Positions 11,401-33,103 of a DNA stretch of 33,103 bases are shown here, in pieces. Position numbers and translations under genes: made by a program. Source of the DNA: a virus (Duplodnaviria > Caudoviricetes); IMG/VR virus record IMGVR_UViG_3300030098_002236, positions 1-33,103 of that record; one strand, written 5' to 3'. The first letter of the stretch is position 1. Every line of letters begins with the position of its first letter. The notes beneath the pieces are model-generated. The model did not search any database. It saw only the letters and a list, made by a program, of their open reading frames with translations, and was not told the origin of the DNA.

Positions 11401-14400
11401 TAGAAATAGACGAAACAAGACCAAGAACTCCATATACAACTATAGGGGTTAATGAAGATGGCAATGAAGTTATTATTTCCACAACACCTATAGAACAGTT
11501 TCCAGGCACTGTACCTTCAAGACCTCTTACAGGTTTAACACTTAGACCTAGAGCAGGAGTAGGTGGTCCAGATGCAACACCTGTTGGTGAAGTATATGAT
11601 GTAAAAAAATTAACACCAGAAGAATATTTAGATACTAAAAATTTTATTTTAGATAATTATAAAAAGATTTATAAAGACGTTCCTAAAGGTGTAAGAAAAG
11701 ATGGAAGAAAATTTCTTCAATGGATGAGAGATAATGCACCCAACGAAGATTACAAAATGATTTCTTCCAAAGTTTTAGAAACTTTAAATAAACTAGCTAA
11801 TGCAGGTATAGATACATTTATAGAAATTAAAGCATTGCCTCGTGGTAGAAGCGGACAAAATGCATATAGTCCATTAGAAGGACAAAATACAGTTACTTTA
11901 GCTAATAGAAGAGATTCAGGTCGTGATGATGGAGTAAATTATGAAACTATATTGCATGAGTTTATACATTCAGCGACTGTTCCTATTATTTATAAAAGAA
12001 AATTAGGTGGATTAAATAAAAAAGCAGATAAATTATTTAAAAATTTAGAAGAAATACAAGAAAAATTTGCAACAGAAATTTCTAGTCGTTGGAAAAATTT
12101 AAGAGATAAAATAGAAGAATATCAATCTACAGGAAATGAAGATATAGCATTAGAACTTGATAAATTAATATTAGAACCAGCAGAAAAATATTTACTTGAA
12201 GGAAGTCGTTATATAGATAATGGTAAATTTGAAAGAATAACCTCTCCATTAAACGAAGATAGACTTAAAGGTAGGATGCGTGAGTTAAATTTTAGAATTT
12301 TGCAAATGGGCAGACATTTTATTGGCTATCAAACATATGGATTACAAGAACCAAAAGGAAAAACTTTTAAAGAATTAAAAGAAAATAAACAAGCTGATCT
12401 TTCTGAGTTTTTAACTTTTGGTTTTACAAATAGACAGTTCCAAGAATTATTAGAAAGCGTTGATTTTGTACCTAAAAAACAAAGTGCATGGTCTAAGTTT
12501 GTAGATTCTATTAGAGAATTTATAGGACTGCCTGTAAAAGCTAATACTGCTTTGTCAGGATTTTTAGAAAATGCTTCTACATTAGTGGATATTGCTGCAA
12601 TAGAACCAAGTGATGTTTTATCAGGGCAAAAAGATGTAATTATAACAACATCAGATCGGCAATCTTTAGATGATGAAATAAATAAACTAGGAACGCAAAT
12701 ATACAACCTAGAACGTAGAGCAGAAGCTGATAGACAATATATTAGTAATGACACATATAACCAAGATATGCGTAGGATTGATGGTTTAAAAACTAGGCAA
12801 GAAGATTTAATACGACAACGTGCAGAGTTGCCTCCAGAACAGCCACCTTTGTTTAGTAGAGCACAAGATATTGGATCACCTCTTGATGAACCTCTTAGTT
12901 ATAGATTAAATGATAGAACTTTAGAACGTTGGTTAAAATATCATAACTATGAAAACTTAAATGAAAGACCAGGTGCACCTAGAACAGAAGGTGAGATAGA
13001 TGCAGCATATAGAAGAAATGATCCTGCTCTCAATGAATCTTATGTTTTATACCCAGATAGAGTAGAAACTTTCTTTGCACCTACTGGTGATAAGTTATCT
13101 AAAAAAACATACAAGAATCCAACACATAGACAATTACTTGTAGACTTTGATTACATACCTCGTACACAAGAAGATGTACCTTTATTTAGTAGAGCAGCTA
13201 CTAAAAATTCACCTGCATACTTAGATTTAACAAAAGAAAATTTAGAATATACAAATGAGTGGGCAAAAAATGAAACTGAAAATACTTCTCGTTTAATTTT
13301 ACCTTTTATTACAAGGATGCCTATAGATGATTTTTTAATGTTATCTTCTGATAAAACAATTTTTGAATTAATTAAATCTGAAAAACCAAAAAATGTTGAT
13401 GTTATGGGAGATACAGTAGCTGTTGATCCTAATTTTAATCCAGACATTTTTAATAAATTACCAAGAAGAATGAATAGATATGTTGGTGCATATCCTTATT
13501 TATCTATTAATGAAGATGGTAAAGTTATTGGGCATGAAGGTAGGCACAGATTAGTTTTAGGTCAAAAAGATGGTGCTATTGATGCACCAGTTATTATTAT
13601 GTTTGAACCAACAGGCAAAGCATTACCTCAAAAAGAAAAAATATATTCTGCTGAAAATTTAAAAGATTTAGAAATTACATCTTTAATACCTCAATTTAAA
13701 AATTCCGCAGTAGATAAAGTTGACCTATTAGAAGATACAAGTATCATTAATGACGAAAATATAAATCGTGCATTAGCAATAGCAACTTTACCAGATGGCA
13801 TAAAACAAAGAAAAAAATTAAATGATGAAAGAAAAAAATCTGCTTTATTTTCTATACAACAAATCCAAAATATTCCACAAAATTTAAGAAAAAATCCAAA
13901 ATATAGCTCTCAATTAGAAACGCACTACGATAATTTAATAAATTTAGGATATTTAAAATCTTCACCATTAGATATTTTAGATGTGCCTTTATTTAGTAGA
14001 AGCACAAGATTTGCAACAGATGAAAGCACATCAGAAAATAAAAAGCTAATAGAAGCCACTGAGAGAGTCGAGGAGATCGTTAAATCTACACCGAATGGTG
14101 AAATACCACCTGTTAATCCAAACGCTTCTGACGTAGCATTTAAAGCATTTCTAGATTTTAACGATACTAGCAATACATCTACCCCACCAGATGATATACC
14201 TACATTCTCTATTGGTACTATCCCAGAAGAGTATCAAGACCAAGTAGATAAGATTGGTTACACAGAACCAAGAAAATCATTTGGTGCAAGAATGATTGAC
14301 TTTACTTCTGATCCTATTAGTAATATTAAAAAATCATTTAGATCAGTAAGAACTCAACTTATTGATAAGTTAGATTTAATAGATAAAAAAATTACTCAAG

Positions 14401-16940
14401 CCATAGAAGATAATGACGAAGTAAGAGCTAATAATAATACAGCAGATACAGCAACTATGGCTGCATTACGCATGGCAGATAGAGCTAGAGGATTATTTCA
14501 AGGGATGCTTACAAGAGGTTTTGTTAGCGATTCCATACAAAATGAAAATGCTTTAGCCAATGTAAATGATCTTGAAATAAGTACAGTCTACAATCCTTAT
14601 ATTGAGGGTGATACTGGAACTGGTGGTCTTATGCAAATAATATCACCACTGTATGCAGACCCTACTGTAAACAGAGAGTTTTTGTTTAAGTTATATGCAA
14701 CATCAAAACGAACAGAAAATTTTGATAAGAACGGACAACTTGTTGATTCGCCTATATCAAGAGAGAAGGCAGCAGAAAATATTAGAAATATAGAACAAAA
14801 CTATCCTAGTGTTGTAGAGGTATATAATAATTATCAAAACTGGAATAACCAGTTAATAACTTTTGCAGAAAAAAAAGGATTGCTTGATAAACAACAAGCA
14901 CAATTATGGAAACAACACTCTGCATACTATCCTTTCTACAGAAAGATGGTGGATGAAGAAAATATTTTAGGTCCTCGTATTGCAGCAGGATCATTGCCTA
15001 ATAATCCATTAAGCATACAAATTACTGGATCAGAGAATCCATTAGATGTTGATCCTATAGAAGCTATAGCTAGAAATTCTTTATCTATATTAACAGCAGC
15101 TTTAAAAAATGATGGCACATCAAAATTACTTAGAGATTTACAAGCTATTGGAGATGCAAAAAAATTAGAATCACCTGACGAAATTAAAAGAGCATCACAA
15201 AATAGAATATTTGTTTTTGAGAATGGTCAAAAAACTTTCTATAGTGTAGAAGACCCAGAACTATTCTATGGCTTACAGTCTGTAGGTGGTATGAACACTG
15301 ACTTTATTACTAAGATACTTGCAATGCCAGCCTCTATATTAAGAGATACAGTTACAAGAGACCCAGGATTTGTTGTAGTTAATATACTTAGAGATACTTT
15401 GTCATCTGCTGTAACATCTGGTGCACCCATTGGTGCAGATGGATTCAGACCTGTTATAGATTCATTTAAGAATATGTTTGAGGACATGGAAAACTTAGAG
15501 AAGTTTGGTGTTCTTGGTGGATATGATTTCCAAAATGATGAGGGTACTGTCAAACAATTTATTGATAGAAGTATGAGACAAGAGGGTTTAATGCCTGACA
15601 ACTCAGCCAGTGCACAAGATATGTTCTTTAAACTTTGGGATGGGTTAGGTGCATTAACAACTAAATCTGATGGTGCAACAAGAAAAGCTGTATATGATGC
15701 AGTCTATAAAGACCTTATAAAAAGAGGGTATACAGAAGCACAAGCACAATCAGAAGCAGCCTATCAAGCACTTGAGATAATTAACTTTGGTAGACGTGGA
15801 CTATCACCAATGTTTAGAACAATTACTGCTGCGATACCATTTTTAAACGCAAGGATTCAAGGTCTTGATGTTCTGTTTAGATCATTTACTGGTAAATATT
15901 CTGCTGTAGAAAAACTCCAGGAAGGAGAAACCAGGGAAGATGTCAGAAAAAGAATATTAAAAACAGCAATCACAAGAGGTGGATTCTTGATGGCTCTGAC
16001 AGCCATATATTACATGATGGTTAGTGATGATGAAGAGTATCGAGGTCTTAGACGTGAAGTTCGTGATGACAACTGGATTATTCCATTAGTAGATGGCATA
16101 CCTGCTCTCAAGATTCCTATACCATTTGAGGTTGGAATGATCTTTAAAACGTTCCCAGAAAGGTTTATAGACGAGTTTATGGGCAGAGAAATAGAGCCAG
16201 AGCCTTTGACATCAGTTAAAAGACAATTAGGAACATCAGCCAAACTACCTTTCTTTGATGCAGGTTTAGGATTCCAATTATTAAAACCATTTGCTGAGGT
16301 ATATCAGAACAGAAATACTTTTACTAACACAGAGATTGTTCCCTACTATCAACAAAAATTAGAATCAGGACTACAATCTAGGCGTAGCACCAACGAATTA
16401 CTGAGGGTTATAGGTGAAACATTTAACGTATCACCTGCAAAGCTAGAGCATCTATTTAGAGGTTATACAGGAACACTTGGAGGTTATGTATTAGATGTAG
16501 CAGATGTTATTGCTAGAGGTGTTACAGGAACGCCTCTCATACCACCTAATCTTAATTCTATACCAGTGCTTAGAAGATTGCTTCAAGACACAGACAGGTC
16601 TGGAGGAGGACTACAGCAACAGTTCTATGAATTAAGAAGTGAAGTAGATACAGCAGTTCAAACTATGAACAAACTGAGAAAAGATGAAAGATTTGATGAA
16701 TACTCAGCTTATCGTTCCAATATGCAAGGCATCTTAAACATTAAAGGACAGGTCAGAAGTATAGAAAGATACATGGATAACTGGAGAAAACGTAGAGATA
16801 GACTTCTCAGAAGAACAGATATTTCGCCAACAGCGAGAGGTGAATTACTGAAACAAATGGAATTAGAAAGAGACAGACGACTAGCAATAGTGCCAGAATT
16901 AAGGGATAGAGCAAATATACCAGTGATTAGAGGTATTTAA
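8493..16940 (+). CDS. Large polyvalent internal virion protein (two HExxH zincin-like motifs, ParB-like motif, C-terminal LPD38-like domain)
   Basis: 2815 aa. HEMIH (10929-10943), HEFIH (11955-11969), GHEGRHR (~13530). C-terminal AIPFLNARIQG..RDDNW..IPIPFEVG..SPAKLEHLFRGYTGTLG is typical of LPD38. Confidence 0.8.
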   Translation: MEKINIPRYGVISLPDNIDPVERAQIAADIKKDFGIDINQTTILGRAAELPKGIARGAIGLATDVPLGIASVFDVGNDGKIVKGLQGFKKKVREESPLAAEPGYEDLWTTKLSEGLGSFVPFLGAGLAGRALTQAPKPFFSKGYFKTPEFTLPAALAVPTGVAQQADRVQMAREMGEDVGGISETVAELLGGVIGISEVLPIGALLARTSKTALKDYALRDKIRSALIQGTQEGAQEVFASLSQDLIARGLYSDELPIGESLADEFTIGGVIGAGADLVVNSFAGRRGIGNENLKQREAQLRQNRIQLQDEKRFDKAVEQGLVEEIQPVEVKDKPDIPIPVGEIQPLPNFEIIQDTQGNFNLLDTSKEGSPVLKTFEAEAEAIVAKEKELNKLRVKNLKIDIENALYNQGLINSSSGFDLGVTLLDPNSIQLNPQSILNFDSKVKKVDRKDIESYFTKKKVDLKPTYTMQEVRKILAPKDLNRLQSDMAQQIFRQSEKRGEPSIRDDKSQVNVNNKYIKEIAASKNIELDFKDPAVQHFTREVTGYDDISKVKNRGAKELFLARLHSLPKFNFKTKLPDFRPRQYSAEDMANFVANMGINNTEFSVADLLKAGPTAGNKPATEQFVRDLTTSGRANKVEGTNKYKINKNYEFEVARKAEGFNETPEEFGERLVREGVLPQETIDQLIEAEKVRQEKYLPPKEVAPKMINFAQSVEEGRVNKFAQEARKILDKAGLKETGVIISDEILSTEGLIETPDGVIKRDPRAYRDETSFSEGEYDRNTDIVFVSLNAVNPDGLATDAEIQQRINRIIDHEMIHALRAKDLINEQEYQYLRQEVKRRKVPESVDAEAFAKNKTYYQRSIDLNERTLQGRNVGKDGAEEFYVEEAIAELYRNRFSQPAIPKKAETIFEKITQFFKSLGQAFRRSGFDKSSDIFRAIEEGEVGKRQRGEIRTLREIDRVPLADELQPIVEIDETRPRTPYTTIGVNEDGNEVIISTTPIEQFPGTVPSRPLTGLTLRPRAGVGGPDATPVGEVYDVKKLTPEEYLDTKNFILDNYKKIYKDVPKGVRKDGRKFLQWMRDNAPNEDYKMISSKVLETLNKLANAGIDTFIEIKALPRGRSGQNAYSPLEGQNTVTLANRRDSGRDDGVNYETILHEFIHSATVPIIYKRKLGGLNKKADKLFKNLEEIQEKFATEISSRWKNLRDKIEEYQSTGNEDIALELDKLILEPAEKYLLEGSRYIDNGKFERITSPLNEDRLKGRMRELNFRILQMGRHFIGYQTYGLQEPKGKTFKELKENKQADLSEFLTFGFTNRQFQELLESVDFVPKKQSAWSKFVDSIREFIGLPVKANTALSGFLENASTLVDIAAIEPSDVLSGQKDVIITTSDRQSLDDEINKLGTQIYNLERRAEADRQYISNDTYNQDMRRIDGLKTRQEDLIRQRAELPPEQPPLFSRAQDIGSPLDEPLSYRLNDRTLERWLKYHNYENLNERPGAPRTEGEIDAAYRRNDPALNESYVLYPDRVETFFAPTGDKLSKKTYKNPTHRQLLVDFDYIPRTQEDVPLFSRAATKNSPAYLDLTKENLEYTNEWAKNETENTSRLILPFITRMPIDDFLMLSSDKTIFELIKSEKPKNVDVMGDTVAVDPNFNPDIFNKLPRRMNRYVGAYPYLSINEDGKVIGHEGRHRLVLGQKDGAIDAPVIIMFEPTGKALPQKEKIYSAENLKDLEITSLIPQFKNSAVDKVDLLEDTSIINDENINRALAIATLPDGIKQRKKLNDERKKSALFSIQQIQNIPQNLRKNPKYSSQLETHYDNLINLGYLKSSPLDILDVPLFSRSTRFATDESTSENKKLIEATERVEEIVKSTPNGEIPPVNPNASDVAFKAFLDFNDTSNTSTPPDDIPTFSIGTIPEEYQDQVDKIGYTEPRKSFGARMIDFTSDPISNIKKSFRSVRTQLIDKLDLIDKKITQAIEDNDEVRANNNTADTATMAALRMADRARGLFQGMLTRGFVSDSIQNENALANVNDLEISTVYNPYIEGDTGTGGLMQIISPLYADPTVNREFLFKLYATSKRTENFDKNGQLVDSPISREKAAENIRNIEQNYPSVVEVYNNYQNWNNQLITFAEKKGLLDKQQAQLWKQHSAYYPFYRKMVDEENILGPRIAAGSLPNNPLSIQITGSENPLDVDPIEAIARNSLSILTAALKNDGTSKLLRDLQAIGDAKKLESPDEIKRASQNRIFVFENGQKTFYSVEDPELFYGLQSVGGMNTDFITKILAMPASILRDTVTRDPGFVVVNILRDTLSSAVTSGAPIGADGFRPVIDSFKNMFEDMENLEKFGVLGGYDFQNDEGTVKQFIDRSMRQEGLMPDNSASAQDMFFKLWDGLGALTTKSDGATRKAVYDAVYKDLIKRGYTEAQAQSEAAYQALEIINFGRRGLSPMFRTITAAIPFLNARIQGLDVLFRSFTGKYSAVEKLQEGETREDVRKRILKTAITRGGFLMALTAIYYMMVSDDEEYRGLRREVRDDNWIIPLVDGIPALKIPIPFEVGMIFKTFPERFIDEFMGREIEPEPLTSVKRQLGTSAKLPFFDAGLGFQLLKPFAEVYQNRNTFTNTEIVPYYQQKLESGLQSRRSTNELLRVIGETFNVSPAKLEHLFRGYTGTLGGYVLDVADVIARGVTGTPLIPPNLNSIPVLRRLLQDTDRSGGGLQQQFYELRSEVDTAVQTMNKLRKDERFDEYSAYRSNMQGILNIKGQVRSIERYMDNWRKRRDRLLRRTDISPTARGELLKQMELERDRRLAIVPELRDRANIPVIRGI

Positions 16941-17329: not shown

Positions 17330-17419
17330 CATTGACCAGTAAATATTTATTGCATACCATCCCAGGCTGCCGTTCAAACATTGACTGGTAAATATTTTAT
17401 TTAGCAGCTTCCAGGCTGC
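17330..17419. repeat. Two imperfect ~41-bp direct repeats, each containing the TTKACYRGTMAA palindrome
   Basis: cattgaccagtaaatatttatt...ccaggctgc (17330-17370) and cattgactggtaaatattttatt...ccaggctgc (17379-17419). Confidence 0.8.
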
Positions 17420-17420
17420 G

Positions 17421-25146: not shown

Positions 25147-25633
25147 TCTACAGTTAAACGAAATAGGTAATGCCTACTTACATAAACGTAATAAAGTAGG
25201 CATAGTTCCTATTAAAAAAAGTAGACAAGGTAGAGCCATTGTCTACGATCAACATATCATTGACAGACTGTATATCGACAGTCACATAAACGAACAACAA
25301 CACAACATACTAAATCAATATCTTTCAGTGATATCAAGGAGTGGTTGTTTTCCATCCTGCTTCCCAGACGCAAATAAAATATTTACTGGTCAATATCCAA
25401 ATTCGCCTCCAAAAGCAATCATACTCGTTGGTGTACAAAAGCATTTGGCAAAAGAGTTAGGTGTAAAAAATGAATCAAGATTATGGAAAATCTTTGTAGA
25501 TAACCCAAAGAAATTGGGTAAAAGGGATATTAAATTGGTTAATGCTTTAGCTGAAAGCCTTATGACTTATTGGTTCATTGGTCATCAAAATCCTGTTTCT
25601 TTGTTTCAACAAGCCCTGTCAAACCCCATTTAG
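25100..25633 (+). CDS. Hypothetical protein (start uncertain)
   Basis: 177-aa open frame following the helicase. Confidence 0.6.
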   Translation: MNKQKLLQTTTTGISNLQLNEIGNAYLHKRNKVGIVPIKKSRQGRAIVYDQHIIDRLYIDSHINEQQHNILNQYLSVISRSGCFPSCFPDANKIFTGQYPNSPPKAIILVGVQKHLAKELGVKNESRLWKIFVDNPKKLGKRDIKLVNALAESLMTYWFIGHQNPVSLFQQALSNPI

Positions 25634-25829: not shown

Positions 25830-26109
25830 CTTTCAAATCCTCGTAATCAATATTAATCGAACCCTCTACTTTACCTACAGCAACACTCTCTCTTCCAACC
25901 TGCCAAAACTTACCCTCTTTCAGAGTTTCTATGGCATGATCTAAATAGTGTTCATTCGCACCCAACAGAGGATGATCTAGTAAAGTAATAGCAAAGGACA
26001 TTGCATCTACTTCTGTATCAAACAACCAAACTAAATGTTTCCACTCTCCTACAGAGTTATATTTATCTCTTACATCTAATTCAAAGGTATGTCTAATAAC
26101 AGCAAACAT
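25804..26109 (-). CDS. Hypothetical protein (probably leaderless)
   Basis: 101 aa; TACAAT -10 element at 26116-26121 lies 6 nt upstream of the ATG. Confidence 0.65.
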   Translation of the reverse strand: MFAVIRHTFELDVRDKYNSVGEWKHLVWLFDTEVDAMSFAITLLDHPLLGANEHYLDHAIETLKEGKFWQVGRESVAVGKVEGSINIDYEDLKDDTQKSIH

Positions 26110-26162
26110 TAAATTATTGTAAGCGAAGTGCTATCAAAATGAAAGTAAATGTTCTACATAGA

Positions 26163-26210
26163 ACACAGTATATAGTGATTTTTTTGAACGGAAAACACAA
26201 GATGTTGGGG
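26163..26210. promoter_or_regulatory. Tandem NrdR-box-like sites
   Basis: ACACAGTATATAGTGA (26163-26178) and ACACAAGATGTTGGGG (26195-26210) against consensus acaCwAtATaTwGtgt; 32 bp apart. Confidence 0.6.
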
Positions 26211-26400
26211 ATCAGGTGCTACGCGTAAAAAGAATATTTACTAGTCTAAGGTTTTTCCAGAAGGATCGAAAATCAAAATATTTTTAAATCAGGAAACTGG
26301 GATGGTAAGTTTTACAAATACCAATACAAATAACAATACCAACACAAATACAAATTCTGTCTCAATCAATCGACTGTCTCTCGTTAATTTTTTTTAGACC

Positions 26401-26433
26401 AAAAAAAAGGGAAGATTTTTACATCTTCCCTTT
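26401..26433 (-). terminator. Intrinsic terminator
   Basis: GGGAAGAU-GUAAAA-AUCUUCCC followed by U8. Confidence 0.85.
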
Positions 26434-26504
26434 AGGTGTTAGGTTATTACTAACTTATTAACACAGTAGGAGGTTTTAATTACTATGTTAATCAAACATA
26501 CTTG
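26401..26504 (-). ncRNA. Predicted ~100-nt sRNA with an anti-Shine-Dalgarno loop
   Basis: Own promoter and terminator. 11-bp stem UUAACAUAGUA/UACUGUGUUAA with loop AUUAAAACCUCC; second hairpin GUUAG/CUAAC. Confidence 0.65.
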
Positions 26505-26509
26505 GTTTT

Positions 26510-26538
26510 AATATAGGTCAAAAGATTGCAAAACGCAA
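26510..26538 (-). promoter_or_regulatory. Sigma70 promoter of the predicted sRNA
   Basis: TTGCGT-17-TATATT. Confidence 0.6.
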
Positions 26539-26541
26539 TAG

Positions 26542-26583
26542 TTATCCACAATTTATTAACAACTTGTCCACAGGTTGTTTACA
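26542..26583 (+). promoter_or_regulatory. Array of four DnaA-box-like 9-mers at 11-bp period
   Basis: TTATCCACA (26542, perfect), TTATTAACA (26553), TTGTCCACA (26564), TTGTTTACA (26575). Confidence 0.65.
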
Positions 26584-26731
26584 TCCATATTTTTACCAGT
26601 AAATATTTATTTTGAGCTTTCCAAAACACGTTAGCGACTACTATCACCCAACTACCAACAATCAATATATACCAGTAAATATTTATACAATCAGGTGATC
26701 GGGCTTCTACCACTTTCTCTTTATTTTTGCC

Positions 26732-26770
26732 AAAAAAAAAGCGATAGCCACTAATTAAAGTAGCTATCGC
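26732..26770 (-). terminator. Intrinsic terminator of the early operon
   Basis: GCGAUAGCUACU-UUAAUU-AGUGGCUAUCGC followed by U9. Confidence 0.9.
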
Positions 26771-26990
26771 CCATGACAATTTCTTTTGTGAGTTTGTCAA
26801 ACGCACTGCTATTCGTTATTTATACCTGTTATTTATCGTTAGCATTTAATATTTATTTTGCTTGGTACTTGCACTCTAGCAACTGGCAAGTCTAGTTTTT
26901 GTTTTCAAGAGCCAAACTAACAGACTCATGCAATTTCAGTTATTTTATTTTATGTCGTATAACTGGACACAACGTTCAAGATCGACATTC
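26771..26990 (-). ncRNA. Putative structured RNA (3' trailer) with a pseudoknot and a module shared with the hammerhead insert
   Basis: Interleaved stems AUGUCG/CGACAU and CAGUUAU/AUAACUG; 22 nt at 26841-26862 are identical to 29923-29944. Confidence 0.5.
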
Positions 26991-26992
26991 AC

Positions 26993-27190
26993 TCAGCTAT
27001 TCTCTTCCATAAAAGAAGTTCTAGCATCATGATAAAAGGCAACTTGAACACCTTGATAAGTTCTAATATCAGCAACACTATCTAAACCAACTTTTTCTTG
27101 GTCAGATAATGTGCTAATAATCACCCAATCTTTATGTCCAAATTCCTCTTCGCAGTGGTCATCTATGATTTCAGTAATATCTCTGCTCAT
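26993..27190 (-). CDS. Small acidic hypothetical protein
   Basis: 65 aa, GAGGAG RBS, ATGA-coupled. Confidence 0.7.
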   Translation of the reverse strand: MSRDITEIIDDHCEEEFGHKDWVIISTLSDQEKVGLDSVADIRTYQGVQVAFYHDARTSFMEENS

Positions 27191-27393
27191 AATTTCAACT
27201 CCTCTTCATCAGACACACTGATTAATTCATAGTCTCCACCTTGAGATTTAATTTCCTCCCACTCTTTACTGGCATCATCAGAAAAATCGCCACTTAACAT
27301 TAAATTAACAGCATCTTCCTCAGATTCAGCGATTACCTCGCATCTCTCAGTAGTAGAAAAATCCATTTCAAATACATATCTTTTTATAGTCAT
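27187..27393 (-). CDS. Small acidic hypothetical protein ('V.AESEEDA' type)
   Basis: 68 aa, AGGAGG RBS. Confidence 0.75.
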   Translation of the reverse strand: MTIKRYVFEMDFSTTERCEVIAESEEDAVNLMLSGDFSDDASKEWEEIKSQGGDYELISVSDEEELKL

Positions 27394-27421
27394 AAAACCT
27401 CCTATTTTTTATGTATTTATT

Positions 27422-27488
27422 TAAGTTTCTGTTTCACCTATTTTTAGGCTCATCAGTGAAAAACACCCATTTTTCAGACAAAAACTCA
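27422..27488 (-). ncRNA. Hammerhead ribozyme, type III (HH1)
   Basis: UGAGUUUUUG-UC^UGAAAAA(UGGGUG)UUUUUCA-CUGAUGA-GCCUA(AAAA)UAGGU-GAAA-CAGAAACUUA; predicted cut between 27477 and 27476. Confidence 0.85.
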
Positions 27489-27585
27489 GATTTCGACCTC
27501 TCAGAATCCTCTCTCTTGCATTAAGACGATAAGGGTAAGGGTCTAGCATAGGCTAGATTACCCTACCCTTAAATCGAATCAGACG

Positions 27586-28851
27586 TTAGTGAAACTCAGA
27601 AACGTTGACGTATACGTTCTCCCCAAAAGGAAATTTAGGGTCATACTCATAACCATTATGAGTTATCGCCCAAATTACAGGAACGCTTGGCTCTACTTTT
27701 GCATCCACTTCGCCATAAGCATCTGTGAAATAAATAAAGGCACAAACTTCCTCAACATCATCTGAATAGTTATTAAAGAGATTAAAAGGAGGGTCAAAAT
27801 CTGTTCCTCCTCCACCTCTTACCTCTAGTTCAATATCATCACCCATTGAGAGATCAAATACATCCCACCATTCATCCTCGCTATTTTTTCTTACAGTAGT
27901 ATCGCAATAGCAAACTCTTACTTTATCAATGTTGCAAGATTCACATATTGCCTGTAATTCCTCAGAAAAAATGTTGAGTTCAAATTGTGAAACTGAACCA
28001 CTGGTATCAATGGCAACTGCAATTTCCCCACCCTCATTAGAACGTATCTTGCTAGGTAAATTAATACCCCTCCAAGAATGACGTTTATTCAGTCTTGACC
28101 ATGATTGATCTTTTAGGGTCATTGAAGTTAGTAAATCAGATAACAAGTCTCTCCAGTTAAGAGTTCCACCCTTAACAGCATCAACTCTTCCAGTCATTGA
28201 GGAAGTTCCACTCAGACTGGCGATCTTATCAGCGAAAAACACTTGCGATCTGATAGCATTAGACATTTCTTCCTTTTCAGATTCATTAAGAGGTTTACCC
28301 TCTTCGTTCACTGCATCCCATACCTCACCTACAAGTTTAGGTATGTTGGAATACTTATCATCACTTGATGATTGTGAATTGCTATCTGAATCATCAGAAT
28401 TGCCATTTGCACTATTGCACTCATCTATTGCTTGTTGCAAGGCATCATCATTAGTATCAAGTTCTCGATAGACTTGTTCAGCAGTCCACCCACGATACTT
28501 ATAATTAAATAATCCACCTTGAGGTAAATCCATGCCTAGATCAATTTTGATATAAGCATTGATTACATAATCAGTAGCTACATTCCATAGTTCGTGATTA
28601 CGTTTACCTCGTCTAAGTGGATGTTCCCATACAACGTGCATAGATTCATGGATGAGAACACACTCTATCTCTTTATCTGTTATCTCTTTAACAAACTTAG
28701 GATTCCAAAGTATCTCTTTTCCATTGGTAGCCATAGTGTCGCACTTATCAGTTTCTACTAATTCAAGATTAAGTAGCATTGATGCAATTCCTACATCATG
28801 TTTCATTAATCTTGCTCTTGCTTGTAAAACTCTATCAGTCATCTTTACCAC
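27586..28851 (-). CDS. DUF2201-type metallopeptidase + vWA domain protein
   Basis: TMATNG, HESMH (HExxH), WNVATDYVIN, MIDAS DTSGS, GGGGTDF, FTD. Confidence 0.92.
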   Translation of the reverse strand: MVKMTDRVLQARARLMKHDVGIASMLLNLELVETDKCDTMATNGKEILWNPKFVKEITDKEIECVLIHESMHVVWEHPLRRGKRNHELWNVATDYVINAYIKIDLGMDLPQGGLFNYKYRGWTAEQVYRELDTNDDALQQAIDECNSANGNSDDSDSNSQSSSDDKYSNIPKLVGEVWDAVNEEGKPLNESEKEEMSNAIRSQVFFADKIASLSGTSSMTGRVDAVKGGTLNWRDLLSDLLTSMTLKDQSWSRLNKRHSWRGINLPSKIRSNEGGEIAVAIDTSGSVSQFELNIFSEELQAICESCNIDKVRVCYCDTTVRKNSEDEWWDVFDLSMGDDIELEVRGGGGTDFDPPFNLFNNYSDDVEEVCAFIYFTDAYGEVDAKVEPSVPVIWAITHNGYEYDPKFPFGENVYVNVSEFH

Positions 28852-29803
28852 CTAGTTTTTTCATTAATCCACCTTTCAATGGGTCAATGGCTTTATCTAG
28901 ATCATCAGCAACTTTTTTACGTTTTGCATCTCCAATATCAGTCTCATCTCTAAGAGAATCAATACTGTTAATGGTAGACAAAACAGCTACTAGACTTTGG
29001 TGAGCATTAGCTATATCAATGTCATTGCCTAATACGTCTTGATTGACGTTAGGAATAACTTCAACTGCTTTTCGCAATTTATCGAAACTAGAATCTTTAA
29101 AGAATCCACCCTTTTTATTAGTAGGGTCATAAGATTTAAGTTTCTCTGATATATGCTCAACTTGTTCTACTAAAGCATCAACAGTAGTCTGAAATATTGT
29201 CTTAACATTTTTGCTAAGTCTCTTTTCAGCATCCTGTTCGATACGTTTTCGCAAGTCAGCAGATACGTTTAATCTGATATCGTTGCTATAGCTAGGTATT
29301 AAAGAAATCTCAAAATCAAATTTGAATTTATCTTTAATATCATCCACTGGTGGATAATCACCCATATTGAAAGCATGACCTAAAACTTCTTTAGCATCAA
29401 TAATCATATTAGGATAGTTCTTACAAAACTCATCAACTTCTTTAAAGAAGTCTTGCCTTGCTTGATCTACTGCCTTTTGCAAATTGTCTAATTGACTATT
29501 TGGGCATAATCTCCACCCACTTACGACCTTGTTATCATCATCCGAGGAATTATCATCCCAAGGCAAAGTCAGTGGATAGTAGCTATCATTTCGCACTTTG
29601 TTAATGATTCGTCTAAAGTATTTATTAGCATTGAATCCAACTAAATGCTTGGCAACGTGCAACAAAGATTCATCACTTGTATTAGTAATATCAGCTAAGT
29701 TATTACGAAGTGATTTATCAGTTTTAATGCCACTCCAAAACTTAGTAGTAAGTCTTACCAAAGTAGCATTTTCACTTAACGTATTAGTATTTTCATTTTT
29801 CAT
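28835..29803 (-). CDS. Helical protein, DUF3150-like
   Basis: 322 aa; K.L, TLPW.D..W.L, F..NYP, YP....I..KF pattern; lies between the ATPase and vWA genes. Confidence 0.6.
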   Translation of the reverse strand: MKNENTNTLSENATLVRLTTKFWSGIKTDKSLRNNLADITNTSDESLLHVAKHLVGFNANKYFRRIINKVRNDSYYPLTLPWDDNSSDDDNKVVSGWRLCPNSQLDNLQKAVDQARQDFFKEVDEFCKNYPNMIIDAKEVLGHAFNMGDYPPVDDIKDKFKFDFEISLIPSYSNDIRLNVSADLRKRIEQDAEKRLSKNVKTIFQTTVDALVEQVEHISEKLKSYDPTNKKGGFFKDSSFDKLRKAVEVIPNVNQDVLGNDIDIANAHQSLVAVLSTINSIDSLRDETDIGDAKRKKVADDLDKAIDPLKGGLMKKLGGKDD

Positions 29804-29858
29804 AAAACCTCCTAGAAAAATATATACTGGTTAATAATATTTCCTATCATTAGGAAAC

Positions 29859-30044
29859 ACCTAGACTGGAAAGTGTTTGTCAAAGTAGTACCTTGATATA
29901 AGACTATTCATTTATCTCGTTGAGCATTTAATATTTATTTTGCTCGTCTAACGCGGTTGTACTTAAATGGGAAACCCCTTCTCCCATATACCATAGACTT
30001 CTACTCTCCAGTTTCGCCTAAATTTCATAGGCTCATCAGTAGGT
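29859..30044 (-). ncRNA. Hammerhead ribozyme, type I, with a ~134-nt insert in stem III (HH2)
   Basis: ACCUA-CUGAUGA-GCCUA(UGAAAUU)UAGGC-GAAA-CUGGAGAGU...ACUUUCCAG-UC^UAGGU; predicted cut 29864/29863. Confidence 0.85.
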
Positions 30045-30045
30045 T

Positions 30046-31095
30046 TTAATACTCTAAGTCTTGATGCTCAACTTTAAATTTTGCATAGACTGAAGTATCA
30101 ATTAATTCACTTCTCCTAGTGATAGATTGTCTTACGAAAAACAAACTAAACTCTGGAGTAGCGAATTTCTGAACATAGGCAAGAGCATTTTCAAAATAAT
30201 CTACAACTAGAGATTTTTTTGCACTCTTGATTACATCCACTAAGGCAACAGCAGTGGCAAAACAAAGTCCTACTTTGTCAACGACTTCCACGTCTTTACC
30301 ACTTACTATGTCGCTTAGATTTGGAACATCATCCATTAGTGAAATGAAGTTAGTAAATTCAATTGCTTGTATTTCCCCAACATCACATTCAGCTATTTTC
30401 TGAATGAGTTCTTTAGGTGGATTGGTTTTTAATGTATCACTCAATCTCGACCATGCTCTAGGGCTTGGTTGAGGAGTAGTGATCTTGGCATCAAAATCAT
30501 TAAGAAATTGAGGTTGAAAGTTCAGATAACCTACTACCCTACTATCAACATCATTCTCAATTGCCCACTTATCCCAATCTTGAAAGTCATGCTCAAAATT
30601 AATTAATGAGCATCTTCCAATAACATGACTAGGAAGTTTGTTAGAACCAGCACGATCACTCGCCCTGTTTCCAGCACATATCATTTTCCACCCTTTAGGC
30701 AAAACGTATTCGCCTAAACGCTTTTCATAGATCAATTGACCTACCACAGCTTGAACGCTTGGATGTGCTTGGGCATACTCATCAAAAAATAAGACACCCT
30801 CGCCACTCTTGGGAAGATTACCTAAAAAGGCTCTCTTTTGTCCTCCCTCATCATCTATATAAGGAAGTCCACCAAGATCAACTGATTCATATAACGAAAG
30901 TCTAAAATCAATAAATCCAAACTCTTTTGACTTAGGATTAATGTTATCAACGACTATCTCTCTACTATCAGCTAACTCAGTAGCTAATTGCCTAACTACA
31001 GCAGATTTTCCAACACCTGTTCCACCTAGTAGAAAAGGCGTGTTTCCACCACCTAAAACAGATTTCATAATCTGTAATGCTTGACTTGGTTTCAT
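30046..31095 (-). CDS. MoxR-like AAA+ ATPase
   Basis: Walker A GGTGVGKS, Walker B LFFDE, AGNR, SPRAW. Start set at MKPSQ after the GGAGG RBS. Confidence 0.92.
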   Translation of the reverse strand: MKPSQALQIMKSVLGGGNTPFLLGGTGVGKSAVVRQLATELADSREIVVDNINPKSKEFGFIDFRLSLYESVDLGGLPYIDDEGGQKRAFLGNLPKSGEGVLFFDEYAQAHPSVQAVVGQLIYEKRLGEYVLPKGWKMICAGNRASDRAGSNKLPSHVIGRCSLINFEHDFQDWDKWAIENDVDSRVVGYLNFQPQFLNDFDAKITTPQPSPRAWSRLSDTLKTNPPKELIQKIAECDVGEIQAIEFTNFISLMDDVPNLSDIVSGKDVEVVDKVGLCFATAVALVDVIKSAKKSLVVDYFENALAYVQKFATPEFSLFFVRQSITRRSELIDTSVYAKFKVEHQDLEY

Positions 31096-31167
31096 AATAA
31101 TTCCCTCCATGAAACAAAGTTAGTAAAAAGATTTACCAGTCAATAAAAAATATTTTCCAGTAAATCC

Positions 31168-31231
31168 ACCTAGACTAGATCAAGTCTCCTTGATCTAGTT
31201 TCGCAAGAATCTCACTTGCTCGTCAGTAGGT
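31168..31231 (-). ncRNA. Hammerhead ribozyme, type I (HH3)
   Basis: ACCUA-CUGACGA-GCAAG(UGAGAUU)CUUGC-GAAA-CUAGAUCAAG(GAGA)CUUGAUCUAG-UC^UAGGU; predicted cut 31173/31172. Confidence 0.95.
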
Positions 31232-31573
31232 TTAGGTCAAAACATTAGAGATACGTTCCTCATTAGGATTCACCCAACGATCTCTAGACATAAGACCATT
31301 TTCTAAAACGTATTCTAGATGCTTAGTAGCATTATTAATGTTATTAAACATTCTTGCTCTATAACCACTCTCATCACATAAATAGCAGTCAAATTTTGTT
31401 AAAAAATAATAACTCCTATTTTCACCATACAACTCTTTAATTAAGTCATATACATTCCAAGAATAAATATAAACCTCAATTTCGTTATGTGGCTCGACTA
31501 TTCTTGTATTGTCTCTCCAAACTTTCCAGTCCTTAGAGACAACTTTTTTCTTAGACCATTTAATACTATTCAC
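31232..31573 (-). CDS. Hypothetical early protein (GTG start)
   Basis: 113 aa, GGAGG RBS, flanked by HH4 and HH3. Confidence 0.7.
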   Translation of the reverse strand: MNSIKWSKKKVVSKDWKVWRDNTRIVEPHNEIEVYIYSWNVYDLIKELYGENRSYYFLTKFDCYLCDESGYRARMFNNINNATKHLEYVLENGLMSRDRWVNPNEERISNVLT

Positions 31574-31599
31574 GAAATACCTCCCAGTATTTAATAATT

Positions 31600-31665
31600 A
31601 CCTAGACTAAACCCTAAATAATTAGGGTCTAGTTTCGCCAAAATTTCATTGGCTCGTCAGTAGGC
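31600..31665 (-). ncRNA. Hammerhead ribozyme, type I (HH4)
   Basis: GCCUA-CUGACGA-GCCAA(UGAAAUU)UUGGC-GAAA-CUAGACCCUAA(UUAU)UUAGGGUUUAG-UC^UAGGU; predicted cut 31605/31604. Confidence 0.95.
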
Positions 31666-32075
31666 TAAATTGCTAGGGCAACTGGCTCATCTAAAAATAG
31701 ATCATTCTCAATCTCTCGCAATATATAAACCTTGCTAGGGTCTATCTCTATGCAAGTAGTGTTTGACGAAATTAAAAGAGCATCCATGTAAAGGTATTGA
31801 TCTCCTTTAGATTGTTTCAAGTAAACTAAATCACTCTTAAACAGTTCACAAAATAAAGTGTTTAGTCTCTCTCTCGTTGTAACTGTTCCCCACCCACACA
31901 TAGAGAAACATAAGTGAATATTATTACTTAAATTTTCGCTAGGATGATTGTTCTCCCACCATGCAATTTTATTGTTATGCAGAAAAATCTCACCATTCTC
32001 GGTGTAAGTATTTCCCACAGTTTTTTTCTTATCATTAATAAACGCTTTCGCAATTTCTATAGATACTTTTCTCAT
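31665..32075 (-). CDS. Hypothetical early protein (MRKVSIEIAKAF...)
   Basis: Start reassigned to 32075 behind GGAGG, since the longer track start lies inside HH5. LHNNKIA..GWGTVTTRERLN pattern. Confidence 0.8.
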   Translation of the reverse strand: MRKVSIEIAKAFINDKKKTVGNTYTENGEIFLHNNKIAWWENNHPSENLSNNIHLCFSMCGWGTVTTRERLNTLFCELFKSDLVYLKQSKGDQYLYMDALLISSNTTCIEIDPSKVYILREIENDLFLDEPVALAI

Positions 32076-32083
32076 AAATAAAA

Positions 32084-32156
32084 CCTCCAAAGTTTTATGT
32101 TTCTTGAACCCCATTAGGGGATTCTCTTCAGCACGTTAGTTCGTGGACATAGGAGG
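32084..32156 (-). ncRNA. Variant hammerhead ribozyme, type III (HH5)
   Basis: CCUCC-UAUG-UC^CACG(AACUAA)CGUG-CUGAAGA-GAAUCCCC(UAAU)GGGGUUC-AA-GAAA-CAUA...GGAGG; extra AA before GAAA; predicted cut 32146/32145. Confidence 0.7.
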
Positions 32157-32183
32157 GAAATTAATCCCCCCTCTCTTTAAAAA

Positions 32184-32390
32184 TCAAATACAGACCTTAA
32201 CCACATTCTTTACAGATTCAGAATAGCTATCTTGTTCAATTGTTTCCCATTCGCATAAAGGTTCATTATCTTGGGCAATAACTTTCGCTTGTTCTTCGTT
32301 ATCAGCTTTCACTATTTTGAATACCTTATAAGTGTATTCTCCTTGTACTTTGTATCTACTCATCTTCGTTTGTTGATCTACTTTCATCAT
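32184..32390 (-). CDS. Small hypothetical protein ('VKADNEEQA' type)
   Basis: 68 aa, GGAGG RBS; first gene of the leftward operon. Confidence 0.75.
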   Translation of the reverse strand: MMKVDQQTKMSRYKVQGEYTYKVFKIVKADNEEQAKVIAQDNEPLCEWETIEQDSYSESVKNVVKVCI

Positions 32391-32394
32391 TCAT

Positions 32395-32467
32395 ACCTCC
32401 AAGTATGTTTCTTGAACCCCAAAATAGGATTCTCATTCAGCTTGTTAATTCAAGGACACATGGAGGT
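32395..32467 (-). ncRNA. Variant hammerhead ribozyme, type III (HH6)
   Basis: ACCUCCA-UGUG-UC^CUUG(AAUUAA)CAAG-CUGAAUGA-GAAUCCUA(UUU)UGGGGUUC-AA-GAAA-CAUA-CU-UGGAGGU; predicted cut 32455/32454. Confidence 0.65.
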
Positions 32468-32747
32468 TGTGTCAGTAGTTCTTACTTTTCCCTAGTTTGA
32501 TTTTTCAGCTATCGCTTACTGGTCAATGTTCAAGAGGAATTTCATACCCTTAAAGAATCTCAGAGAGATTCACCCACGCCCATTTGTTTTAAGTCAAGGT
32601 CTCGTTCCAACGACTACTGGCTTTATATTTCACCAATACAAGTATTTAAACAGATTACAGCATCATTGTCTAATCATATTTATCTATATATCTGATAGCT
32701 AAATGAGATCATTACCAAGAAGACAATAACCAGTTAATATTCAATCT

Positions 32748-33103
32748 ATGGAAAACGACAAAACAAAACCAAAACTCCAAGTAATAAAAGCAGATGATCT
32801 AACCATTAAGCAGAGGTCATTTGTTAATGAGATCGTTAAGGGCAAGTTAGGAAGTTATAAAGAGGTCTATGCGAAAGTCTATGACGTTGCTCTAACCAAA
32901 GGAGGGAACATTCCTAAGTGGGTAGAAGTGGAAGCATCTAAGTTAGTAGCTAACCCTAAGATAGCACTAAGCATACAAAAGGCTTTAGAGCGTAAAGAGG
33001 TCAGTTCAGTAGCATCTAGCCTTAGAACTAGGAACTATGTCATAGAACAGTTATATAAAGAGTCCAGAGAGTCTGATAGTGATTCAGCTAGGATTAGAGC
33101 ATT
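32748..33103 (+). CDS. terS: Terminase small subunit, 3'-truncated; not in ORF track
   Basis: Translated by hand: MENDKTKP...LTIKQRSFV...ASKLVANPKI...DSARIRA, open to the window end. Confidence 0.75.
   Translation, partial: MENDKTKPKLQVIKADDLTIKQRSFVNEIVKGKLGSYKEVYAKVYDVALTKGGNIPKWVEVEASKLVANPKIALSIQKALERKEVSSVASSLRTRNYVIEQLYKESRESDSDSARIRA

Follow-up and report, generated by a model that had tools for sequence, protein, structure and literature searches.

The third of three hammerhead ribozymes in a minus-strand phage operon carries, at the far end of its stem III, what sequence comparison suggests to be a conserved, independently folding RNA domain, and a paralog of the core of this domain precedes the terminator at the end of the same operon. 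The reading that we favor, to which we assign a probability of roughly 0.35, is that two messages carry the domain at their 3' ends as a recognition tag, and that it is not a switch.

Genomic context of the ribozyme-bearing operon

The analyzed stretch of DNA (hereafter, the window) comprises an entire IMG/VR virus record (33,103 bases), whose completeness is estimated at 56%. It encodes proteins typical of tailed phages, including an endolysin, virion proteins, a DNA-ejection protein, a RusA-like resolvase and a Sak-like annealing protein, as well as an exonuclease, a primase/helicase and a small terminase subunit, and no near relative of its right-hand 7 kb (26000-33103) was found among GenBank phage records. 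A 2815-aa ORF on the plus strand (8493-16940) has PHROG matches restricted to its final 700 residues, all of them to families without an assigned function. The insert-bearing operon runs on the minus strand from about 32390 to 26993, with small ORFs first, and contains three genes (AAA ATPase, DUF3150 and DUF2201/VWA-like metallopeptidase) that constitute one gene set:

31110-30046, minus strand: MoxR-like AAA ATPase, with stop codon at 30048-30046
29803-28835, minus strand: DUF3150 protein, the operon gene after the ATPase
28851-27586, minus strand: DUF2201 metallopeptidase with a VWA-like domain, followed by two further small ORFs

Three type I hammerheads at gene junctions

Hammerheads were located with a type I motif finder of our own, combining the core words with four stem II pairs, seven stem III pairs and at least four of five stem I pairs. 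The search outlined three type I hammerheads in the window; they are paralogs, they belong to the minus strand of this one operon, and each lies at a gene junction. HH-c, the third, lies between the ATPase and DUF3150 genes, and is the only one of the three to carry the conserved RNA domain:

31600-31665, minus strand: HH-a, type I; core start 31660, stem III loop of 14 nt, predicted cut after C31605
31168-31231, minus strand: HH-b, type I; core start 31226, stem III loop of 12 nt, predicted cut after C31173
29859-30044, minus strand: HH-c, type I; core start 30039, predicted cleavage after C29864
30044-30040, minus strand: HH-c stem I 5' strand ACCUA (motif finder), pairing with UAGGU
30039-30032, minus strand: HH-c core CUGAUGAG (motif finder)
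30031-30016, minus strand: HH-c stem II, 5 bp
30015-30013, minus strand: HH-c core GAA (motif finder)
30012-30003, minus strand: HH-c stem III 5' strand ACUGGAGAGU, followed by the 128-nt loop (30002-29875)
29874-29865, minus strand: HH-c stem III 3' strand ACUUUCCAGU, followed by C17 (29864)
29863-29859, minus strand: HH-c stem I 3' strand UAGGU (motif finder)

A stem I of (A/G)CCUA with UAGGU is common to the three hammerheads. The 5' end of HH-c adjoins the ATPase stop codon, and the minimum-energy fold of 29850-30050 is exactly the type I hammerhead (z = -2.68), with an open stem I of 5 bp, a closed stem II of 5 bp and a closed stem III of 10 bp, counting the A15.1-U16.1 pair. An initial annotation of the window had described a 9-bp stem III enclosing about 134 nt. 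The hammerhead is real in this outline, but stem III comprises 10 bp and its loop 128 nt; the value of 134 nt, like those of 14 and 12 nt for HH-a and HH-b, belongs to a 7-bp definition of stem III.

Eighteen distinct HH-c sequences were obtained, and 16 of them were aligned, the two omitted differing only outside the aligned stretch. The type I core (C3 U4 G5 A6 N7 G8 A9, G12 A13 A14, A15.1-U16.1, C17) is complete in all 16 distinct variants, with N7 (U or A) as its sole varying position. Stems I to III are 99.4% paired across these variants; stems I and II are invariant, and stem III is 98.8% paired across all 16. Four stem III pairs switch between G-C and G-U or between U-A and U-G through changes in the 3' strand only. 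These switches are not double changes and carry little weight alone; each of them keeps a pair that exists only in sense-strand RNA.

No Rfam model matched HH-c at the gathering score, with Hammerhead_3 giving the core 38.3 bits against the 48.5 needed; these models do not allow a 128-nt stem III loop. At a loose threshold, Rfam places a type III register at 30095-30006 on the minus strand, using a GUC inside the ATPase ORF; were it real, it would cut 14 codons before the ATPase stop codon. This register was rejected, since by eye its stem I has only two consecutive core-adjacent pairs, and the type I stem I is the one common to HH-a and HH-b. It is probably a spurious artefact of models unable to span the 128-nt loop. 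Separately, the HH-a core can also be drawn with the HH-b substrate strand 533-562 nt downstream, with stem I shared and stem III nearly so, and cross-pairing or alternative cutting of the HH-a/HH-b type is conceivable in the window and also in the related loci L005 and L011.

A protein search of viral contigs with the ATPase returned 28 loci. Hammerhead core and insert are present in eight of the nine loci at 89-99% identity, the ninth ending just after the core start. In twelve loci at 65-75% identity (L012-L023) the hammerhead at the corresponding gene junction is, by eye, of type III, and five further loci (L024-L028) present another hammerhead core, of type I form, with a stem III loop of about 37 nt that holds the hairpin ACCCU-GUGACA-AGGGU; two loci (L029 and L030) have no hammerhead at the ATPase junction. 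The ATPase/DUF3150 junction hence harbors a hammerhead in nearly all relatives, with differing topology.

A repeated 22-mer in the insert and the operon trailer

The 22-mer AGCATTTAATATTTATTTTGCT (plus strand) occurs exactly at 26841-26862 and 29923-29944. These are the only two matches when up to three mismatches are allowed, with none in 100 shuffles and 0 expected by chance, and the 22-nt identity of two copies put forward in the initial annotation is hence confirmed. On the minus strand the similarity extends beyond the 22-mer as (C)AAC(GA)GATAAAT, with a local score of 52 against a maximum of 29 in 1000 shuffles, and TTTGACAAAC is present 38 and 39 nt past the 22-mer in the two copies. 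The ordered series of shared elements that had been proposed is therefore substantiated for these three, but its AAGTAC element, upstream of the 22-mer, is not above chance alone, its score being reached by 914 of 1000 shuffles.

A conserved domain within the stem III insert

The insert folds alone with a z of -1.95 on the sense strand and of -0.96 on the antisense strand. Its length ranges across relatives from 132 to 293 nt with an unchanged hammerhead core, the stem III loop having 132-136 nt in A and A' inserts, 247 nt in long A', and 196, 227 and 293 nt in B, C and D, respectively, and the other hammerheads of the same operons in these relatives have stem III loops of 10-33 nt. About 125 nt are common to all insert types, with a core consisting of the elements P0, P1, P2 and J. 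The elements of the insert in the window, and the P0 strands of each type, are:

29875-30002, minus strand: stem III insert, the 128-nt loop of stem III
29967-29987, minus strand: hairpin P1 (AUGGGAGA...UUUCCCAU), with conserved GAAGNGG in its loop
29922-29945, minus strand: hairpin P2, stem GAGC/GCUC with a 16-nt A/U loop AAAAUAAAUAUUAAAU; includes the 22-mer
29901-29921, minus strand: strand J (AACGAGAUAAAUGAAUA) then GUCU; A-rich, with (G)AUAAA, 3' of P2
29875-29884, minus strand: UUUGACAAAC, common to insert and trailer
P0, type A: GAAGU with ACUUU
P0, type B: GAUUUAAAAGU with ACUUUUAAAUU
P0, type C: (UA)AGUAAAAGU with ACUUUUACU(UG)
P0, type D: UAGUAAAGU with ACUUUACUA

P0 is the helix of 5-11 bp that closes the domain, a role taken in type A' by stem III itself, and it shows three double changes between classes B and C and a paired one-base-pair deletion in D. 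The linkers from stem III to the domain measure 1 and 4 nt at one extreme, in type A, and 103 and 60 nt at the other, in type D, where they contain additional hairpins. P1 forms in all 16 variants with four different stems (AUGGGA/UCCCAU, AGGGA/UCCCU, AAGGA/UCCUU and AAGGU(G/A)G/CUACCUU).

P2 is thermodynamically weak, with 3-5 bp around a 16-nt loop. Its stem is nonetheless paired in 27 of 27 distinct copies, in five variants (GAGC/GCUC, GAGC/GCUU, AGGGC/GCCCU, AGGGC/GCCUU and AGC/GCU); one difference between classes is a double change from A-U to G-C, and 10 of the 16 hammerhead copies have G-U forms. Across the 27 distinct copies, 13 of the 16 loop positions are invariant, and in an alignment of 22 copies the invariant columns amount to 17 of 20 in the P2 core against 2 of 50 elsewhere, a contrast that, on comparative grounds, we take to be the signature of selection on the P2 loop sequence itself. 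Downstream of J, GUCU can pair with AGAC (29949-29946) as P3 in type A, a weakly supported pairing whose register, by eye, is off by one between classes. The GUCUA/UAGAC helix is found in insert type A only, in three of the 16 distinct variants, and is absent from A'. Among the inner helices listed in the initial annotation, AUGGGAGA/UUUCCCAU (P1) and GAGCA/UGCUC (P2) are hence kept in relatives, but GUCUA/UAGAC is not kept beyond type A.

Two other features of the insert were considered. All classes allow a pseudoknot of the GG in the P1 loop with the CC of the linker that follows, but 155-421 of 500 shuffles did equally well in 12 of the 16 variants, whereas in four A' variants it is rarer (25-64 of 500 shuffles equal), and the pseudoknot is retained as no more than an idea. 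A small ORF within the insert, which starts with AUG in type A, was rejected: by eye a 2-nt indel in locus L114 shifts its frame, and A' lacks the AUG. No terminator or promoter was found inside the inserts of the relatives L003 and L007.

A second copy directly before the operon terminator

The second copy of the 22-mer lies in a trailer module after the last ORF of the operon, with the following elements:

26773-26891, minus strand: trailer module, after the last ORF and directly before terminator T1
26890-26886 with 26872-26868, minus strand: trailer 5' hairpin, CUUGC with GCAAG
26867-26864 with 26826-26823, minus strand: trailer P3, UACC with GGUA
26862-26860 with 26843-26841, minus strand: trailer P2, AGC with GCU, loop at 26859-26844
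26840-26827, minus strand: trailer J
26806-26788, minus strand: trailer fourth hairpin, with UUUGACAAAC in and around its loop
26730-26772, minus strand: intrinsic terminator T1, a 14-bp stem followed by a U9 run

Thirteen distinct trailers were obtained, and the alignment comprises 11 of the 12 complete ones, the one omitted differing only in the length of its U-run. The trailer is conserved from its first base (ACUUGCCAGUUGCUAGAGUGC) to the terminator in 12 distinct trailers, and this conservation holds in four of them (T2, T5, T9 and T12) that follow a different upstream gene. The trailer was modeled as a 5' hairpin, P3 enclosing P2 and J, a further hairpin whose loop contains UYUGACAAA, and T1. 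In the 11 distinct trailers this model has 98.0% of cells paired, a figure that falls to 25-44% if the partner strands are shifted. Pairing of P3 is complete (100%), one pair occurring as GC in seven trailers, AU in three and GU in one, and two other pairs switching to wobble; P2 is invariant in these 11 distinct trailers, and the fourth hairpin shows one A-U to G-C double change together with four unpaired cells. RNAalifold prefers other pairings of the repeated GCUA/UAGC words in the trailers, and its fold and the trailer model are indistinguishable there because the GCUA/UAGC columns never vary.

The trailer shares the core P3, P2 and J with the insert, and has neither P0 nor P1. The GUAC/GUAY pairing that the initial annotation had assigned to both copies is retained in the trailer as P3, but in the hammerhead copy it is restricted to type A. 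A covariance model of the P3/P2/J core (R1) returned 11 hits of 63-71 bits in the window and six close relatives, placing two copies, and only two, in each genome. Nowhere else in 235,765 bases, which cover the relatives at 65-75% identity as well, did a score exceed 25 bits. In the L005 trailer (4838-4905), the 3' end of another ORF replaces the P3 5' strand and the P2 5' half, with J onward intact, and the exchange junction falls inside the conserved A/U loop of P2. Because the 5' half of P2 is replaced by the end of another ORF, P2 is dispensable in this trailer. A likeness of the trailer 5' end to the HH-c substrate strand was discarded, as it was absent from the twelve best-scoring windows, in which the best unrelated window scored 25.

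A search against Rfam 15 identified no family at the gathering score for either insert or trailer, and matches with E up to 10 were only terminator-driven or due to chance, in agreement with the earlier statement that the motif is not a recognized one. The distribution of the loop word was assessed in three sets of sequences:

Viral contigs: 28 loci, 8 related
Metagenome contigs: 112 loci, 30 related
Bacterial and archaeal genomes: 54 loci, 0 related

In no locus did the loop word occur twice within 600 bases. Mimicry of a CRISPR repeat was rejected, since a degenerate 20-mer never occurred more than once per locus in the 112 metagenome and 54 genome loci, and no arrays were present. The motif is confined to a narrow clade of uncultured marine phages. 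The initial annotation had made its reading depend on conservation or covariation in related phages; conservation and some covariation were found there, with low diversity and few lineages of one clade, so that each covariation rests on one to three events.

Evidence for an element acting as RNA

Constant orientation in all 28 distinct copies, compensated helices, many G-U pairs and a lower z on the sense strand all favor sense-strand RNA, and the comparative data hence indicate that the element common to insert and trailer is a real structured RNA motif on that strand. The initial annotation had set against its own reading a DNA site independent of orientation; all copies were found on the sense strand, beside a ribozyme or a terminator.

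A site acting as DNA (a promoter, an operator or a replication-related element), with merely incidental hairpin potential, is in our view unlikely. It would account for the presence of CAAAATAAATATT, the first 13 nt of C plus the loop, at three minus-strand sites against 0.01 expected, the third of which (26614-26602) is the left part of an instance of a separate over-represented motif, AWATATTWACYRGT. It would also agree with the position of the trailer, which adjoins a non-coding stretch with two words that we take to resemble DnaA boxes. However, a scan for sigma-70 promoters only (-35 and -10 hexamers with correct spacing) found none at either copy or in the L003 and L007 inserts, and a promoter 100 nt before a terminator would make little sense except to produce a small RNA. 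Moreover, the stems on either side of the loop change yet stay paired, with many G-U pairs and hence pairing only in sense-strand RNA, and the orientation is constant in the 28 distinct copies.

The AWATATTWACYRGT motif is an observation in its own right. It presents 14 matches, where 0.64 would be expected, and is partly palindromic. Most of its sites are intergenic, 10-50 nt before start codons; it also occurs just past the cut sites of HH-b and HH-c, and inside long perfect hairpins in the distant relatives L012 and L014. Its positions are 17335-17397, 25377-25390, 26232-26245, 26587-26608, 26671-26684, 29818-29836, 31127-31161 and 32729-32742. At 17330-17420 on the minus strand, in the gap that separates the RusA-like gene from the following ORF, a unit of about 49 nt (GCAGCCUGG...AAUAUUUAC(C/U)(A/G)GUCAAUG) is present in two tandem copies, each with this motif at its end. 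Candidate roles for the motif are those of a phage promoter, an operator and a hairpin in the 5' UTR.

The non-coding stretch beyond T1 spans 630 nt (26110-26740, minus strand), between T1 (26772-26739), T2 (26433-26406) and the next gene, and contains no ORF of at least 50 aa save a partly overlapping, family-less frame of 75 aa (26579-26806). The two presumably DnaA-box-like words, TGTGGACAA and TGTGGATAA, are at about 26571-26540, and a CCUCC word like the 16S anti-Shine-Dalgarno sequence is at about 26473. The deepest RNA-library contig (13.5x) covers 26525-26687. This stretch may be a replication origin or a small-RNA gene.

Proposed role and alternative explanations

In the recognition-tag reading, the ATPase message would, after the predicted cleavage at C29864, end 3' with the domain, clamped by stem III; because the cut site is 3' of the domain, the upstream product would retain it. 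The DUF3150/VWA message, if terminated at T1, would carry the paralog at its own 3' end, and both halves of one gene set would then end in the same element. The part recognized would be the invariant 16-nt A/U loop on its short G+C stem, and a protein or RNA reading this loop could jointly control how stable the two messages are, how they are translated or where they are located. The RNA evidence comes from four marine RNA-library runs, as contigs only and from relatives with other insert types; one of these contigs crosses the HH-c cut site uncut, and the contigs yielded no RNA ends that could be used and are no proof of expression.

The initial annotation had offered an aptamer or protein-binding domain, making the hammerhead allosteric, or an ncRNA carried as cargo, and the cargo half of this proposal fits the data better than the allosteric half. 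One form of cargo would be a trans-acting small RNA, 3'-UTR-derived and ending at T1 in the case of the trailer, with the ribozyme making the 3' end of the hammerhead paralog. Conservation of a trailer block of about 160 nt, T1 included, whatever the upstream gene, is in line with such an RNA, and an RNA-library contig spanning 26741-26941 with no mismatch provides a weak hint in the same direction. We nevertheless regard a small RNA as improbable, given that neither a 5' end nor a promoter for it was found and that the hammerhead copy would stay on a 1.3-kb message unless cut again. A complementary target for the loop was not found either in the window, which belongs to a record only 56% complete: complements of the loop were confined to the antisense of the copies themselves, with 11 matches at up to three mismatches against 5.3 expected.

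It is likewise doubtful that the insert has no function of its own, being a tolerated expansion of the arm in which the 22-mer is a leftover of duplication or a stretch of homology for module exchange. Insertions at the periphery are frequent among these hammerheads, with stem III loops ranging from 10 to 293 nt and stem II insertions apparent by eye in L012 and L023; the L005 exchange junction lies inside the P2 loop, and the flanks are mosaic. The loop, however, is invariant at 13 of 16 positions in 27 copies while its flanks have diverged to about 50-60% identity, and the helices around it change with compensation, a pattern of purifying selection and not of decay.

An allosteric ribozyme combined with a riboswitch, in which the ligand of an aptamer controls both HH-c self-cleavage and T1 termination, would explain why loops and junctions are conserved as in aptamers, and why the copies lie in a ribozyme arm and directly before a terminator, two classical expression platforms. 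We consider it very unlikely. The 10-bp stem III is paired in all 16 variants and needs no help from the insert, and linkers that can be as short as 1 and 4 nt or as long as 103 and 60 nt, and that include additional hairpins, leave no conserved communication helix. The second copy has no ribozyme and, lacking P1 and P0, would not form the same pocket as the first, and no riboswitch family matches. T1, with its 14-bp stem and U9 run, faces no competing anti-terminator of similar strength that we could find, and no mutually exclusive pairings linking a sensor to ribozyme or terminator were found in the HH-c variants or in the trailer and T1. The allosteric hammerhead (HH2) of the initial annotation is accordingly not upheld for HH-c, where stem III is always paired, linkers are variable and a second copy occurs without a ribozyme.

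Little probability also attaches to an antitermination element, akin to lambdoid nut/boxB or to put, that would load a factor for read-through of T1. The short G+C stem and A-rich loop, located directly before a strong terminator, beyond which come a second terminator and further minus-strand genes, resemble such elements. However, the 16-nt loop is far larger than boxB loops, no N-like protein was identified in the record, and the ribozyme would cut the hammerhead copy away from the polymerase. Least probable of all is a natural hammerhead with a ligand or protein sensor in stem III, the same sensor being reused before the operon terminator; if true, one signal would set the cutting of the ATPase message and read-through at the operon end, and this would be, to our knowledge, the first natural allosteric hammerhead.

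Comparison with known systems

The boxB hairpins of lambdoid nut sites present to a protein an A-rich loop on a short G+C stem, and occur in more than one copy per genome in the transcribed strand. P2 is like boxB in its short G+C stem, its A-rich loop and its multiple copies in the transcribed strand, and unlike it in its 16-nt loop, in the absence of any N-like gene that we could see and in having one copy embedded in a ribozyme. Aptazymes and natural riboswitch-ribozyme pairs carry a folded domain on an arm of a self-cleaving or self-splicing RNA, connected by a short and weak communication helix, and allosteric ribozymes work through such a short, marginal helix, which the sensor stabilizes. 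HH-c shares with them the folded domain on an arm, but its stem III has 10 bp and its linkers are variable.

A search of the open-access literature found no description of such a domain, motif words matching only unrelated, primer-type text. What is new in HH-c is a combination of features: the long insert is itself a conserved, covarying domain, this domain recurs outside the ribozyme at the end of the operon, and it belongs to no described family. Since hammerheads with long stem III loops are missed by standard ribozyme models, as the lack of an Rfam hit at threshold illustrates, layouts of this kind may be under-counted.

Clustered hammerheads flanking genes in phage and prophage operons were reported by Perreault et al. 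in 2011 (PMC3088659), with a proposed role in cutting polycistronic RNA into gene-length messages. Like the hammerheads described here, they lie several close together at gene junctions, within one long phage transcript, and have a canonical core; a conserved stem III domain of more than 100 nt with a paralog in the operon, as present here, is not among the features described in the parts of that report on which we draw. Phage-operon hammerheads are thus known, and HH-c bears on what they may do beyond cutting: it provides a concrete example, amenable to experiment, of a hammerhead whose purpose may be to generate a defined 3' end on which another RNA element is presented.

The split hammerhead of rodent lectin mRNAs, reported in 2008 and described by Hammann and Westhof in 2009 (PMC2920678), is similar to HH-c in that a single transcript contains both its enzyme and its substrate part, with as many as hundreds of nucleotides between them. 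That hammerhead is mammalian, and the sequence between its parts is called unrelated in the sections of that review relevant here, whereas in HH-c the intervening sequence is a conserved, covarying domain.
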